From the IMG/VR virus record IMGVR_UViG_2713896791_000002: a stretch of DNA of 5,844 nt. One strand, written 5' to 3'. The stretch's first letter is position 1. Every line of letters begins with the position of its first letter. The stretch is from a virus (lineage: Duplodnaviria; Heunggongvirae; Uroviricota; Caudoviricetes). This document shows, one piece after another, positions 2,958 to 5,844 of the stretch. The translations under genes and the position numbers were made by a program. Under the pieces are notes generated by a model, which worked only from the letters and a program-made list of their open reading frames with translations, ran no database searches and was not told the DNA's origin.

Positions 2958-2992
2958 TAAGGATTAAATTTTTAACTAAATTTAATTATTCA
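2958..2992 (-). repeat. AT-rich intergenic linker, copy A (partner at 4265-4322)
   Basis: Plus strand GGATTAAATTTTTAACTAAATTTAATTATTCAGG against GGATTAGATTTTATTTACAGCGCTAAATTTATTTATTCAG in copy B. Both start at the TAA stop of the upstream minus-strand gene and end at a GGAGG. Confidence 0.5.
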
Positions 2993-3621
2993 GGCGCGAT
3001 AAGCTGTTCCGCACAATCCAGCAATGCTTCTGTCGCTTCCTTAAGCGTTACTGTATCGCTATCATCCAGTCCTGCAACTTTTTCGTACCTGACAAACGCC
3101 GCGCAAAGCTCGTTAAACAACCCCGCCCGTACTTCAGCCAGGAAAGCGTCGGTGGCCGGAGTTTCAGGAATCCGTCTCCTCATCCGTTCTATTGCATGAT
3201 TGAACCCGAAATCTTCAGCAAGAGATACGTCATCCATATTGTCATTGTCGTCCTCAATATCCCGTGGTTCTGGAATTGCAGACTTTATTACCGCATTCTC
3301 CGCCGCCAGCGCCACAAGATTAGCTTTCAGCTCTGCAATTCGTTTGTTTTGGGCTTCCCGTTCATCCAGTAGTGCCAGCGCAACATTTGGATTAAAAGCA
3401 GCAATAAATTCAGCGTTTGCATAAGCCTGAACATCTGTTTCAACCAGGCAGTTAACATGACATTCTGCAATTACGCCACCGGGCTCTCCTTTCCATTTTT
3501 GACAAACAAAAACTCCTGTTATATTCCCATGCTGATTGCCCGATGTATGCCCTACGATGTAGCATCCTTTAGTTGCTTTCTCTGCTGCTTCACGCAGCGC
3601 CTGATAGTCAATCTCGCTCAT
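2986..3621 (-). CDS. Ead/Ea22-like family protein (211 aa)
   Basis: N-terminus MSEIDYQALREAAEKATKG..., central coiled-coil-like region (...REAQNKRIAELKANLVALAAENA...) and acidic stretch typical of lambdoid Ea22-like proteins. Shares its N-terminal motif with the paralog at 4649-5110. ATG overlaps the upstream stop (ATGA). Confidence 0.65.
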   Translation of the reverse strand: MSEIDYQALREAAEKATKGCYIVGHTSGNQHGNITGVFVCQKWKGEPGGVIAECHVNCLVETDVQAYANAEFIAAFNPNVALALLDEREAQNKRIAELKANLVALAAENAVIKSAIPEPRDIEDDNDNMDDVSLAEDFGFNHAIERMRRRIPETPATDAFLAEVRAGLFNELCAAFVRYEKVAGLDDSDTVTLKEATEALLDCAEQLIAPE

Positions 3622-3794
3622 TCATCGCCCCACTCATCACAATATGCTTCGACCGGATTTTTTCCTGCTTCATAATCATCACGCCATGCTTCAGCATCAG
3701 CAGCACTGCCACCACGTAACTCTGCATATTCCATTAACAGTTCATGCCATTCTTCAAAACTGACGCTGTATTTAGTTGAACCAAAATCAGCCAT
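3618..3794 (-). CDS. Small acidic hypothetical protein (58 aa); not in the ORF track
   Basis: Manual translation from ATG 3794-3792: MADFGSTKYSVSFEEWHELLMEYAELRGGSAADAEAWRDDYEAGKNPVEAYCDEWGDE, with stop TGA at 3620-3618 overlapping the Ea22-like ATG (ATGA). GAGGAAG SD about 8 nt upstream and an in-frame stop just upstream at 3818-3816. It fills an otherwise unexplained 170-nt space in a tightly packed operon. Confidence 0.45.
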   Translation of the reverse strand: MADFGSTKYSVSFEEWHELLMEYAELRGGSAADAEAWRDDYEAGKNPVEAYCDEWGDE

Positions 3795-4018
3795 TTTGTT
3801 CTTCCTCTTCGTCTTTTATTTCGTGATATGAATAATTGCAGTAGTTAAAGAAAATATCTTTTGCTTCGTCATGTATTTCATCAGGCGTCGCATCNNNNNN
3901 NNNNNNNNNNNNNNNNNNNNNNNNNNNNNNNNNNNNNNNNNNNNTCATCCACTTCGAATTCATCCTCGAAATCTCCACCGGCTATTCCCGTTTCAATAAT
4001 TATTTTAAACTTTCGCAT
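3787..4018 (-). CDS. Small acidic hypothetical protein spanning the 50-N gap (about 75 aa if the gap preserves frame)
   Basis: ATG at 4018-4016 directly after the SD-hairpin element gives MRKFKIIIETGIAGGDFEDEFEVDD...; after the gap the track frame reads ...DATPDEIHDEAKDIFFNYCNYSYHEIKDEEEEQNG. The two parts are in different frames across exactly 50 N, so the true gap length is probably not 50 or there is a frameshift. Confidence 0.4.
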
Positions 4019-4264: not shown

Positions 4265-4322
4265 AAATATACCTCCAGTTCAGGATTAGATTTTATTTAC
4301 AGCGCTAAATTTATTTATTCAG
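4265..4322 (-). repeat. AT-rich intergenic linker, copy B (partner at 2958-2992)
   Basis: See copy A. Here the linker and its GGAGG lead directly to the ATG of the 70-aa ORF. Confidence 0.5.
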
Positions 4323-4671
4323 TTCTGGATTTTGTCGCCCTGCGTATCCGCGCTTTCGCGTTACGTTCAATCTGAATTAACTTTTCTATATTTTTCCGCC
4401 TTTCCTGTTCCTCCTGGCGCAATAGCCTTACATCATCTGCCAGTCTGGTTTCTCTTTTCGCCACAGAGAGCATCCAGTCAAACGGCTCCACAACCGCACC
4501 GCAGATTTTACAGCGGACCTGGCGCTCTTTTTCGTCAACCCGAACAGAGGCGTGATGACAATATGGTCTTTCCGATGGCTCATAAAGAAAATTAACCTGA
4601 TTACGAGGGTCATCCTCTTTTACCGGAAATAAAACGATATTGCTTAACTCATCCTCTGGTTTTATTTCCAT
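4315..4671 (-). CDS. Hypothetical protein with Cys/His zinc-binding-like motif and basic coiled-coil-like C-terminus (118 aa)
   Basis: Strong SD AAGGAGAGGAG just upstream of the ATG at 4671. Motif ...YCHHASVRVDEKERQVRCKICGAVVEP..., then a Lys/Arg/Glu-rich C-terminus. Start overlaps the end of the upstream Ea22-like gene by 23 nt. Confidence 0.6.
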   Translation of the reverse strand: MEIKPEDELSNIVLFPVKEDDPRNQVNFLYEPSERPYCHHASVRVDEKERQVRCKICGAVVEPFDWMLSVAKRETRLADDVRLLRQEEQERRKNIEKLIQIERNAKARIRRATKSRTE

Positions 4672-5110
4672 GCTCCTCTCCTTTGATGCGAATGCCAGCG
4701 ACGCGTAATGCGTGTTCTAGGTCAATCAGGTAAAGCCAACTGCCATTTTCTTTAGGTATCATGACATGTCGCTCATCTGCATTTATCGGGTGTCCATATC
4801 GAAGGTCGTAGCGAGTCGGTAATTGAACTTCCCGCGCATCCAGTTCAGCAATACGCTTGCTCCCATCAGAGATAACGCCTTCGTAATACTCACGCTGCTC
4901 GTTGAGTTGTGATTTTGCTTCTTCCAGTCCATCCAGCAAACCAGCGATAATATCCGCTTCCCGATGACGGATATGACGCTTAAACGCAGCAAGAGCCGCA
5001 TCACAATCCCGTTCAGCATTTGGGCTGTCCGGGGTAGCCTGATACCACGCCAGCGTCGACTGATAGTTTTGTGCTGCCTCACGAAGCGCCTCATAGTTAA
5101 CCTCTCTCAT
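4649..5110 (-). CDS. Ead/Ea22-like family protein, second paralog (153 aa)
   Basis: N-terminus MREVNYEALREAAQNYQ... parallels MSEIDYQALREAAEKAT... of the 211-aa paralog, and both contain a KRIAEL segment. ATG at 5110 overlaps the stop of the DUF4406-like gene (ATGA); AGGAGG upstream. Confidence 0.6.
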   Translation of the reverse strand: MREVNYEALREAAQNYQSTLAWYQATPDSPNAERDCDAALAAFKRHIRHREADIIAGLLDGLEEAKSQLNEQREYYEGVISDGSKRIAELDAREVQLPTRYDLRYGHPINADERHVMIPKENGSWLYLIDLEHALRVAGIRIKGEEHGNKTRG

Positions 5111-5403
5111 CGAGCCACCTCCTGATAAATCACCGCATGCCCCAGTTTCTCCGCCAGTGCCAGCTCTGCCTTAGCGCCCGCTGACCGCTGCCAGCCATTC
5201 AGCATGTAAATCGCATCCACACAACGAATCATTGCCATGCAAATATCCATGTAGTGCGGCTGTGTCAGCCCGTCCGGAAGTACTGCCGGAGTTAAGACGG
5301 TATGCCCTTCCCGTTTCAGTTCCTCTTCCGCCTTGTGAAACGCCTCACGGTTGAAATTTTCATATCCCGTCATTGGACCGGCAATATAAACTCTCACCCT
5401 CAC
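5107..5403 (-). CDS. DUF4406-like protein (nucleoside 2-deoxyribosyltransferase-like fold), about 98 aa
   Basis: VRVRVYIAGPMTGYENFNREAFHKAEEELKREGHTVLTPAVLPDGL...DAIYMLNGWQRSAGAKAELALAEKLG: the YIAGPMTG N-terminal motif and overall pattern fit DUF4406. GTG start at 5403 is chosen because AGGAGG lies 7 nt upstream and it overlaps the upstream TGA (GTGA); the track start at 5472 would overlap the upstream gene by 70 nt. Confidence 0.65.
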   Translation of the reverse strand: MRVRVYIAGPMTGYENFNREAFHKAEEELKREGHTVLTPAVLPDGLTQPHYMDICMAMIRCVDAIYMLNGWQRSAGAKAELALAEKLGHAVIYQEVAR

Positions 5404-5792
5404 TCCATCACCTCCTGAAAGTTTCCCCGATAGAACGCCAGCACACGCTGCATAACTTCGCTCTGGCGGCACTCACGACAAATTATGTTCTGCCGTCTGT
5501 TGTAACGACGTATTTCTCCGTCAGGTAACTTTCGAATCAGTGTCGGGTCAGCAGCCTTCTCCGGTGTCTTACGCCATACGCGATACGCCTGCTCTGATGG
5601 AAATACCCCGCAACCAGAGAGCCAGACATCACCACTGGCCGCAAGCGCACCAGATAAACGACGAATAGCGGTCTTACTGACACCCGTTTTATCTGCCAGT
5701 TGTCGAAAAGTTTCTCGTCCGCTCAGGCGCACGAATTCCACAATGCGCGCCTTCACTTCTTCCCGCTCTTCTGGTGTAAATTCTTTTGCCAT
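5400..5792 (-). CDS. Putative HTH DNA-binding protein (about 130 aa)
   Basis: ATG at 5792 with GGAGG 5 nt upstream is preferred over the track's non-ATG start at 5807. Segment TFRQLADKTGVSKTAIRRLSGAL looks like a helix-turn-helix. First gene of the coupled chain visible in the window. Confidence 0.55.
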   Translation of the reverse strand: MAKEFTPEEREEVKARIVEFVRLSGRETFRQLADKTGVSKTAIRRLSGALAASGDVWLSGCGVFPSEQAYRVWRKTPEKAADPTLIRKLPDGEIRRYNRRQNIICRECRQSEVMQRVLAFYRGNFQEVME

Positions 5793-5844
5793 AAGCGCCT
5801 CCGGCAATCACTTTTCCGATACAACACGGCGGGAAGAATCAGTA

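Follow-up and report, generated by a model that had tools for sequence, protein, structure and literature searches.

DNPH1 (Rcl) is a 2'-deoxynucleoside 5'-monophosphate N-glycosidase that acts on hmdUMP, and MilB and BcmB are CMP (hydroxymethyl-CMP) N-glycosidases in which a Ser-x5-Glu pair works on a nucleoside 5'-monophosphate. The nucleoside 2-deoxyribosyltransferases (NDTs, PF05014) belong to the same fold superfamily and have nucleosides as their substrates. In DNPH1, the nucleophile is E104 and the phosphate is bound by S98 and S128', while the pair in MilB is S97 and E103 (PMC10603095). A phage-encoded PF05014 NDT that prefers dA has been described from dZ phages (bioRxiv 10.1101/2025.10.22.683976). 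Lambda ren is described in the literature by a genetic phenotype, resistance to Rex exclusion. We use profile searches, predicted structures and surveys of related loci to place two adjacent prophage genes among these systems and to ask what links the two genes.

Both genes lie in what we call the window, the whole 5,844-nucleotide stretch of viral DNA that was analysed, and positions 5107-5792 are the exact span of their two minus-strand coding sequences, according to both the open reading frame calls and our own reading of the sequence. The window matches NC_013361 at 99.9% identity and represents a lambdoid prophage, Rac/Qin-like, from E. coli O26:H11. The gene order in NC_013361 runs P, DUF1627, DUF977, DUF4406, an Ead/Ea22-like gene and then on to RusA and the Q region, and phage Rac-SA53 has the identical order. 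Both genes are already known: RefSeq carries identical coding sequences with identical boundaries in NC_013361 (WP_001040234.1 and WP_001266133.1) under the DUF977 and DUF4406 family names. They are consecutive genes of a rightward early (pR-type) operon, just downstream of the replication genes (an O-like DUF1376 gene, P and DUF1627), and an earlier note on this DNA, which had assigned them to a phage early region, is borne out by this order, the operon being the early-right one of a lambdoid prophage. The DUF4406 gene itself sits in a highly mosaic accessory stretch that extends from the replication genes to Q, with toxin-antitoxin and HNH genes adjoining.

Table 1. Genes, overlaps and ribosome-binding signals at and around positions 5107-5792 of the window.
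Feature	Position	Strand	Details	Evidence
DUF977 / lambda Ren-like gene	5400..5792	-	ATG at 5792, TGA stop at 5402-5400, 130 aa	ORF and translation
DUF4406 gene	5107..5403	-	GTG start at 5403-5401, 98 aa	Translation
GTGA overlap, DUF977 stop and DUF4406 start	5400..5403 (5403-5400)	-		Sequence read; RefSeq boundaries identical
Shine-Dalgarno AGGAGG of DUF4406 gene	5411..5416	-	7 nt upstream of GTG	Sequence read
Second AGGAGG	5118..5123	-	7 nt before ATG of next gene (4649..5110)	
ATGA start/stop overlap, DUF4406 / Ead/Ea22-like gene (4649..5110)	5107..5110	-		Sequence read
GGAGG ribosome-binding site of DUF977	5798..5802	-	5 nt before ATG	Sequence read

Reading the sequence (Table 1) confirms the coordinates, the GTGA overlap of the two genes and the AGGAGG just upstream, all of which the earlier note had described. 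The 9-mer CAGGAGGTG occurs at only two sites in the window, one at the AGGAGG of 5411..5416 and the other at 5116-5124. The first AGGAGG lies within the final DUF977 codons (Q-E-V), and the AGGAGG at 5118..5123 lies within the final codons of the DUF4406 gene, again Q-E-V. Both junctions of the DUF4406 gene are built alike: an AGGAGG, 7 nt, and then GTGA on the DUF977 side or ATGA on the side of the 4649..5110 gene. At the other end, the stop codon of the upstream DUF1627 gene is at 5810-5808. The overlap and Shine-Dalgarno sequence between DUF977 and DUF4406 are real but not special, as tight packing runs throughout the operon. They would be expected to couple expression of the two genes translationally; because the packing style is common to the whole operon, the overlap is no sign of a joint protein function. 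No promoter-like or terminator-like site was found on the minus strand over 5107-5844 and no Rfam match anywhere in the window, and thus nothing points to separate regulation or to an RNA element.

The upstream protein, originally put forward simply as an HTH protein, is a winged-helix homologue of lambda Ren; Pfam, AF2 and Foldseek all uphold the winged helix and the comparison with Ren refines it. Pfam matches residues 1-126 to all of DUF977 (PF06163, model positions 1-134 of 134) at 1.7e-41, with 141.9 bits against a cutoff of 22.1, and also gives weak matches to HTH families. PHROG 142, named 'Ren-like exclusion protein', matches at 3e-43, BLASTP against lambda Ren (NP_040633) gives 3e-9, and hhalign pairs the protein with Ren residues 6-93 at a probability of 95% (E 3.6e-8). 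The N-terminal winged helix covers about residues 7-64 and is modelled by AF2 at pLDDT >90; the C-terminal half of the model is of low confidence, and the protein has a conserved C-terminal motif, PDGEIRRY...NIICRECRxSxxMQRVLAFY. A Foldseek search with this model returned weak, generic winged-helix matches and none at E < 0.001, and NCBIfam and PADLOC gave no meaningful match for either the DUF977 or the DUF4406 protein. Seeing DUF977 as the Ren family connects ren, a lambda gene that is poorly understood, with a prophage family of wide occurrence.

The downstream protein matches DUF4406 (PF14359) over nearly the entire model (residues 4-93, model positions 2-91 of 91) at 2.3e-37, or 127.7 bits against a cutoff of 22, and PHROG 355, labelled 'nucleoside 2-deoxyribosyltransferase', at 1.4e-47. 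The family is very large, with 18,615 cluster representatives (50% identity) at E <= 1e-3. When the AF2 model (pLDDT 90) is compared with the PDB by Foldseek, the top 24 matches are all NDT, DNPH1 or MilB, with TMq from 0.62 to 0.76: the best is the T. brucei NDT (E 1.5e-5, TMq 0.75), and the other top matches include the Leishmania and Chroococcidiopsis NDTs, human DNPH1, MilB and BcmB. The weaker matches include a viral TIR protein and a TIR-domain chain of SPARTA (8u72_B). In searches of PDB sequences, phmmer with the single protein gave a chance match only (3ndn, E 0.6) and a narrow DUF4406 profile did little better, while a broad profile of 73 members reached the T. brucei NDT (2a0k) at 2.2e-4 and was the only profile to reach an NDT significantly. 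Judged from its predicted structure, the DUF4406 protein has a flavodoxin-like alpha/beta fold and is a minimal member of the NDT/DNPH1-fold N-(deoxy)ribosyltransferase superfamily. The earlier note had assigned it to DUF4406 with an NDT fold and had named placement outside the family or loss of the catalytic residues as refutation; the profile searches place the protein inside the family and the catalytic Glu is kept, and on both counts the assignment stands. A full-text literature search for DUF4406, PF14359, DUF977, LygF and lambdoid deoxyribosyltransferase found no functional study. The name 'LygF' is a locus name only, inherited from annotation.

How much of the known active site is retained in so small a protein? 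We take residue equivalences from the HMM alignment of the 73-member profile with 2a0k, not from superposed coordinates, and count conservation over the same 73 diverse members, which are about 41-62% identical to the window protein. Y6 aligns with the Tyr of YIAGP on beta1 of the T. brucei NDT (the column is Tyr in 66/73 and Phe in 7/73), E80 with the Glu of 'GTAFEVG', and S74 with the NDT Asp six residues before that Glu. S74 is conserved in 73/73 and E80 in 71/73; S74, Y51, G9, F22 and P43 are invariant. E80 is the only conserved acidic residue, the remaining Asp positions being kept in 29/73 (D53), 39/73 (D44) and 49/73 (D63, which is probably structural). Y51 lies near the position aligned with the general acid Asp (Asp72 of NDT, D80 of DNPH1), and no conserved counterpart of DNPH1 E55/H56 is present among the 73 members. 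The sixth residue after Y6 is T/S12 and not Arg as in MilB. In the AF2 model, the protein ends at residue 98, directly after the last strand and without a helical extension, about 30-60 residues short of the ends of NDT, DNPH1 and MilB; because it ends early, it is without the segment from which the adjacent active site receives Ser128' (in DNPH1) or other residues. The Ser-x5-Glu spacing is equal in DUF4406 (S74/E80), DNPH1 (S98/E104) and MilB (S97/E103). In these aligned residues, the active-site signature of DUF4406 resembles that of the nucleotide N-glycosidases DNPH1 and MilB more closely than that of true NDTs.

Since the beta1 Tyr (Y6) and E80 are kept and the invariant S74 is as in DNPH1 and MilB, we infer a (d)NMP N-glycosidase, its enzymatic activity, phosphate-bearing substrate and biological role being predictions. 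E80 would be the site of a covalent (deoxy)ribosyl-enzyme intermediate, as in NDTs, DNPH1 and MilB, and S74 would be the counterpart of the Ser that binds the 5'-phosphate in DNPH1 and MilB. The enzyme would have as its substrate a (deoxy)nucleoside 5'-monophosphate, or a closely related phosphorylated riboside, whose N-glycosidic bond it would cut, and it may act during phage replication so that a particular nucleotide is removed from, or recycled in, the pool. The earlier note had raised an effect on nucleotide pools as a hypothesis, and it keeps that standing. To this whole reading, an early-operon Ren-like gene beside an unlinked DUF4406 (d)NMP N-glycosidase with a role in phage replication, we give roughly an even chance.

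Relatives of DUF4406 carry fusions and have neighbours that bear on its substrate. The fusions include DUF4406+DUF6378 proteins in Planctomycetota and, at one locus (L159), DUF4406 joined to a nucleotide pyrophosphohydrolase-like domain (phrog_671 at 4e-33, with a weak match to DR2231), and the relatives in BFVD carry the names of dATP/dGTP diphosphohydrolase or hydrolase fusions. The product of an NTP pyrophosphatase is an NMP, the substrate that such a glycosidase would use. No PDB sequence matches the C-terminal DUF6378 of these Planctomycetota proteins, and it is therefore from the PHROG and BFVD names that its putative pyrophosphatase nature is taken. Apart from one DUF551, no second Pfam domain was found in the longer relatives (150 best representatives), which are thus uninformative on function. 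Across species, the neighbours of DUF4406 are genes of replication, recombination and DNA modification: RusA, C5 and N6 methylases, DnaB and lambda P.

A different substrate would be an NAD-related or signalling riboside, such as NMN, NAD+ or ADP-ribose-derived immune signals, with the DUF4406 protein acting on it as a glycohydrolase, or holding it as a non-catalytic binder, in counter-defence or host takeover. A site with a nucleophile Glu but no conserved general acid would suit substrates whose leaving group, like nicotinamide, is a good one, the TIR chain and viral TIR protein do occur among the weaker fold matches, the NDT-like effector of Retron-Eco1 reportedly hydrolyses NAD+, and the gene has a mosaic accessory position beside toxin-antitoxin and HNH genes. 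Against this, NDT, DNPH1 and MilB, and not TIR domains or cyclases, head the fold matches, the fusion partners that recur are (d)NTP pyrophosphatase-like domains, no PADLOC defence model was matched and no support was found in the literature. We consider this reading unlikely.

The protein could instead be a true NDT that swaps bases between deoxynucleosides and so reshapes salvage pools in infection. This is the name that PHROG 355 and many automatic annotations carry, the T. brucei and Leishmania NDTs are the closest solved structures, and a dA-preferring phage PF05014 NDT has been reported from dZ phages. The window protein, however, scores 14.2 bits against PF05014, below the gathering cutoff of 28.8; an invariant Ser takes the place of the NDT Asp, and DNPH1 and MilB, whose substrates are 5'-phosphates, likewise have Ser there; the protein lacks the C-terminal part of NDTs; and the NTP-pyrophosphatase-like fusion domains yield nucleotides, not nucleosides. 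A true NDT is on these grounds unlikely.

One could also picture so small a protein (98 aa), with no conserved general acid and no C-terminal active-site segment, as a leftover of the fold that has no catalytic role and serves as a small scaffold or decoy. We find this quite improbable, as the family is very large, and the invariant residues together with the near-invariant E80 are hard to explain, at 41-62% identity, without a ligand-binding or catalytic site.

The question remains whether the two genes work together as a functional couple, the earlier note having described the HTH protein as coupled to the DUF4406-like one. A scan of viral contigs with the narrow DUF4406 profile recovered near-identical E. 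coli prophage loci only, and the diverse loci were therefore taken from a scan of genome contigs. The DUF977-DUF4406 arrangement is identical in 62/80 of the E. coli-type viral loci, another HTH gene is inserted between the two in 17/80, and the pair is present at >=80% of its length in 480/5,426 complete E. coli genomes (about 9%). Beyond this group, a DUF977-like gene stands next to DUF4406 in only 4/80 cross-species genome loci, the upstream neighbours being otherwise diverse; and even among E. coli prophages, one (L164) has DUF977 without DUF4406 and another (L165) has DUF4406 without DUF977. The functional couple is not supported by these data, which restrict the linkage to lambdoid prophages of the E. 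coli type and show it nearly absent across species. DUF977 and DUF4406 are neighbours by position, not partners, and their adjacency is ordinary lambdoid operon packing. A conserved HTH-enzyme module was accordingly rejected on the linkage data. The more specific proposal of a two-component module, in which, for example, the Ren-like winged helix regulates or targets the enzyme for exclusion or anti-exclusion, could appeal to stoichiometric co-expression from the 4-nt overlap with its Shine-Dalgarno sequence and to the constancy and frequency of the pair within E. coli, but it is highly improbable, being largely refuted by independent assortment (the 4/80 loci with their diverse neighbours, the intervening HTH genes, the prophages with one gene alone) and by the same overlap design joining DUF4406 to the next, unrelated gene.

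As it stands, the DUF977-DUF4406 pair is routine and of low to moderate interest. The DUF4406 proteins are small, occur in phage replication and nin-type modules and keep a DNPH1/MilB-like Ser-Glu core, and finding their substrate would give a function to thousands of phage genes and could bring to light an activity that sanitises the nucleotide pool or serves competition or counter-defence. That no general acid is conserved is a hint of a substrate whose leaving group is good. A bolder form of the nucleotide N-glycosidase reading, which we hold to be rather unlikely, is that the DUF4406 proteins are minimal nucleotide N-glycosidases forming a separate and very large class carried by phages, built on a Ser-x5-Glu core without a general acid or a subunit-swapped C-terminal segment, and that they destroy one particular nucleotide. 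Candidate substrates would be a modified dNMP (compare DNPH1 and hmdUMP), the hypermodified precursor of a competitor phage, a cationic or NAD-derived riboside, or an immune signal. If true, replication modules would contain a nucleotide-pool weapon or a counter-defence enzyme.

Set beside lambda, the Ren-like protein shares the C-terminal ECRQSxxMxRVLAxY motif with Ren, lambda ren is called 'Ren-like exclusion protein' in the phage record, the same name as PHROG 142, and replication gene P is upstream of both. The differences are that the DUF977 protein has 130 aa against 96 aa in Ren, with an inserted segment of ~30 residues, that Ren itself reaches no Pfam family, and that the O26:H11 prophage has a DUF1627 gene between P and the Ren-like gene, whereas lambda has no DUF4406 gene and ren is followed by ninB.

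For the DUF4406 protein, NDTs (T. brucei 2a0k, Leishmania 6qai, Lactobacillus 1s2l) are the closest in solved structure and provide its only significant sequence-profile link to the PDB, and the YIAGP motif and nucleophile Glu are common to both; NDTs differ in the Asp at the position of the invariant Ser, in acting on nucleosides and in having about 50-60 extra C-terminal residues. MilB and BcmB (4jem, 4ohr, 4jen) have the same fold (TMq 0.70-0.76). MilB, however, is about 50 residues longer, comes from antibiotic biosynthesis clusters and not from phages, and binds the phosphate by R23, six residues after the beta1 aromatic, where DUF4406 has T/S12-G13; the conserved N18-R19 of DUF4406 is further along than the R23 position. 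DNPH1 (8qhr, 8qhq, 9da6, 4fyi; Foldseek TMq about 0.73) is only about 20% identical in sequence, has about 130-175 aa, and has a general acid D80, E55/H56, a shielding loop and a partner Ser128' that find no conserved counterpart in DUF4406, while the fold, the beta1 Tyr, the nucleophile Glu and the Ser six residues before it are found in both.

We find that the interval 5107-5792, which the earlier note had picked out without giving a strand, consists of exactly two coding sequences on the minus strand, and that the GTGA overlap and the AGGAGG just upstream which it had read are both present in the sequence. In E. coli O26:H11 str. 11368, RefSeq sets identical boundaries for the upstream product (WP_001040234.1, 'DUF977 family protein') and the downstream one (WP_001266133.1, 'DUF4406 domain-containing protein'). 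What the note described is correct, yet it is an ordinary feature, both genes being annotated already under DUF977 and DUF4406; what our analysis adds is confined to the Ren homology of the DUF977 gene, a nucleotide-type active-site signature in DUF4406 and the independent assortment of the two genes. The start/stop overlap design is not peculiar to this pair: DUF4406 and the next gene are joined in the same way (AGGAGG, 7 nt, ATGA overlap). Minus strand 5107-5844 contains no promoter-like or terminator-like site, and Rfam gives zero matches in the window.

Features of the gene pair and its surroundings (window positions unless a locus is named)
Feature	Position	Strand	Remarks
DUF977 gene	ATG at 5792, TGA at 5402-5400	minus	130 aa
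GGAGG before DUF977 ATG	5802-5798	minus	5-nt spacing
DUF4406 gene	GTG start 5403-5401, end 5107	minus	98 aa
GTGA	5403-5400	minus	start of DUF4406 and stop of DUF977 in one tetranucleotide
AGGAGG before DUF4406 GTG	5416-5411	minus	7-nt spacing
Gene after DUF4406	4649-5110	minus	N-terminus Ead/Ea22-like: Pfam 6.2e-11, PHROG 250 1.5e-41
118-aa protein gene	4315-4671	minus	strong match to PHROG 1621 (unknown function)
Second Ead/Ea22-like gene	2986-3621		
ParD antitoxin / ParE toxin pair	1142-1462 and 1468-1767	plus	Pfam 2.3e-7 and 4.5e-10
DUF1627 gene	L002:17908-18633; stop codon at window 5808-5810		between replication protein P and Ren-like gene; immediately upstream of where the window ends on the right

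The 9-mer CAGGAGGTG occurs on the minus strand at 5409-5417 and 5116-5124, with just two copies in the window (0.02 expected) and likewise just two across L002, a 30-kb RefSeq prophage stretch. Each copy supplies the terminal Q-E-V codons of a gene (DUF977; DUF4406) and also the SD 7 nt ahead of the next overlapping start codon. These identical direct repeats, 293 bp apart, flank the DUF4406 cassette and may mark a mosaic or recombination joint.

The upstream protein, which the earlier note took for an HTH protein, is one: Pfam gives DUF977 at 1.7e-41 with several weak HTH families ranking behind, and AF2 builds a confident three-helix-plus-wing domain from residues 7-64 (pLDDT above 90) and a poorly defined C-terminal half. 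Foldseek returns only generic winged-helix regulators (E about 1e-2), and DUF977 was assigned to winged-helix folds in an earlier paper too (PMC2686095). The protein matches PHROG 142 'Ren-like exclusion protein' at 3e-43 and lambda Ren itself by direct BLASTP at 3e-9, and hhalign of a 22-sequence DUF977 profile covers residues 6-93 of the 96-aa Ren (probability 95%, E 3.6e-8). Ren is described in one preprint as 'likely involved in DNA replication', with two-hybrid contacts to Rex proteins (10.1101/2021.04.19.439022).

For the downstream protein, the proposed DUF4406-like identity and nucleoside 2-deoxyribosyltransferase (NDT)-type fold are borne out by profile and structure alike. Pfam gives DUF4406 at 2.3e-37, followed by sub-threshold DUF1937, DUF7768 and Nuc_deoxyrib_tr, and PHROG 355 matches at 1.4e-47; the family comprises 18,615 representatives of 50%-identity clusters at E <= 1e-3 and 7,187 at <= 1e-10. 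The AF2 model is a four-stranded alpha/beta domain (pLDDT 90, pTM 0.83) whose best Foldseek matches in the PDB are without exception members of the N-(deoxy)ribosyltransferase superfamily: T. brucei NDT 2a0k (E 1.5e-5, TMq 0.75), the NDTs of Leishmania and Chroococcidiopsis, DNPH1 of human and rat, MilB and BcmB.

The catalytic residues, which the earlier note had named as a check, can be read from a profile of 73 diverse members, which finds 2a0k by sequence at 2.2e-4. In this alignment Y6 pairs with the Tyr of YIAGP and E80 with the Glu of 'GTAFEVG', while S74 takes the place of the Asp that stands six residues before this Glu. G9, F22, P43, Y51 and S74 are invariant in 73/73 members, E80 is kept in 71, and residue 6 is Tyr in 66 and Phe in the remaining 7. 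DNPH1 uses E104 as nucleophile and D80 as general acid, and binds phosphate through S98 together with S128' of the partner subunit, while MilB keeps S97 together with E103 (PMC10603095). The DUF4406 signature is therefore S-x5-E, as in nucleoside 5'-monophosphate enzymes, in contrast to the D-x5-E of nucleoside transferases. By the conservation counts no acidic residue other than E80 is universally conserved, and thus there is no obvious general acid. Unlike DNPH1 and the NDTs, whose C-terminal region completes the neighbouring active site, DUF4406 stops directly after the last strand and lacks such a region.

Fusion partners bear indirectly on the substrate. Planctomycetota homologues (loci L139, L141, L142, L147, L149, L155, L161) carry a C-terminal DUF6378 fused to DUF4406, and in one proteobacterial MAG (L159:3503-4297) the domain joined to DUF4406 matches PHROG 671 'nucleotide pyrophosphohydrolase' (4e-33) and, weakly, MazG-like DR2231. 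DUF4406 segments also lie inside PHROG 12019 ('MazG-like pyrophosphatase') and PHROG 15484 ('hydrolase'), and BFVD structural neighbours include 'dATP/dGTP diphosphohydrolase N-terminal domain-containing' proteins and mycobacteriophage 'hydrolase' fusions. Because the product of an NTP pyrophosphatase is the exact monophosphate for DNPH1-like cleavage, a nucleotide substrate is supported. The DUF6378 part matches PHROGs 474 and 1167, whose label 'phosphofructokinase' looks mistaken.

We give about an even chance to a joint reading in which the Ren-like product would be an early, replication-associated winged-helix protein and DUF4406 a minimal N-glycosidase, with E80 as putative nucleophile on a 5'-phosphorylated (deoxy)riboside, whose activity may trim or sanitise the nucleotide pool during phage replication; the effect on nucleotide pools or modified bases proposed in the earlier note is still hypothesis. 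A counter-defence role as a glycohydrolase or binder of an NAD-related compound or a signal would suit the lack of a general acid and the position in mosaic accessory DNA, but is unlikely given the pyrophosphatase-type fusions and the lack of defence-model matches. A true nucleoside deoxyribosyltransferase, for all the fold matches, is improbable beside the S-x5-E signature, and a non-catalytic remnant, set between the absent general acid and the near-universal E80, has a slim chance.

The earlier note had also coupled the two genes. In 62/80 E. coli-type viral contigs the DUF977 stop overlaps the DUF4406 start; in 17/80 the two are separated by another HTH ORF, some 105-134 aa long. Across 80 species-level loci (Enterobacterales, Vibrio, Shewanella, Aeromonas, Thalassospira, Janthinobacterium, Planctomycetota, Chloroflexota and others) only 4 have a DUF977-like ORF near DUF4406, 3 of them confirmed by Pfam scan. 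Two E. coli prophage loci carry one gene of the pair and lack the other: DUF1627-DUF977-DUF551 (L164) has no DUF4406, and DUF1627-'DNA-binding protein'-DUF4406 (L165) has no DUF977. From these counts and loci the coupling is translational and positional, as the overlap and SD indicate; lambdoid mosaics typically show such coupling, which gives no indication of joint function. The 4/80 linkage, the single-gene loci and the 17/80 insertions speak against a conserved two-gene unit, and an obligate Ren-like-DUF4406 module is accordingly very improbable. Among complete E. coli genomes the pair is present at at least 80% of its length in 480/5,426 and some part of it in 1,007.

The other HTH ORF (L031, L037, L040-L043, L048, L051, L055, L060, L061, L068, L070, L073, L075, L076, L080; about 3600-4004 in most), annotated 'DNA-binding protein', has the motif ...AEILILRQCAGTM.V.SIG.L.GR...AVRTKARELG... 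and takes DUF977's place immediately ahead of DUF4406, overlapping its start, also in E. coli JNE151685 (L165:1783-2064). Among the 73 upstream neighbours taken from the 80 species-level loci, the families that recur are RusA (6), C5 DNA methylase (4), DUF977 (3), DnaB (2), lambda P and N6/N4 methylase, all prophage replication, recombination or DNA-modification genes. Enterobacterial-type DUF4406 also appears on contigs assigned to a Collinsella sp. MAG (L084, JAIHTM010000290.1; 93% identity to the window protein, DUF977 upstream), an Actinomycetes MAG (L094) and Chryseobacterium sp. 18061 (L097), which points to artefacts of binning or contamination in these assemblies.

A prophage carried by numerous EHEC genomes, of O26 and other types, matches the window at 99.9% identity. 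With its flanks, the genes follow one another on the minus strand as DicA/DicC-type immunity region, YdaT, DUF1376 (O-like) replication protein, replication protein P, DUF1627, DUF977, DUF4406, Ead/Ea22-like and several small genes, HNH, ParDE (opposite strand), DUF968, RusA, DUF1133, and the late-regulator and lysis region. DUF977 and DUF4406 therefore belong to the rightward early operon, in a mosaic stretch equivalent to the lambda ren/nin region. Several neighbours deserve comment. The RefSeq name of the 4649-5110 product, 'sigma-E factor regulatory protein RseB domain-containing protein', is probably misleading (marginal MucB_RseB match, 23.3 bits vs cutoff 22.3). The 4315-4671 gene starts with a 23-nt overlap with the preceding gene, and its product weakly resembles a zinc ribbon (TFIIB-type Zn_Ribbon_TF, 1.6e-4, under the Pfam cutoff). 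The DUF1627 protein matches the AlkZ-like DNA glycosylase family weakly, below threshold (2.6e-4, 21.2 bits vs cutoff 25.9). The ParD/ParE pair is inserted in the accessory region of the early operon against its orientation; RefSeq places the parD start further in, giving an 85-aa product. Two 50-N runs (207-256, 3895-3944) and several isolated N between 583 and 649 break ORFs 175-795 (DUF968/HNH-like) and 3787-3978, and look like masking of the supplied window, since the alignment with the RefSeq record runs straight through them.

In phage Rac-SA53 the local order ydaW/DUF1627, 'LygF'/DUF977, 'rac19'/DUF4406, ead is as in the window and its flank. With lambda, the DUF977 protein shares the C-terminal ECRQSxxMxRVLAxY motif of Ren. 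Lambda ren directly follows P; in this prophage the DUF1627 gene stands between P and the Ren-like gene.
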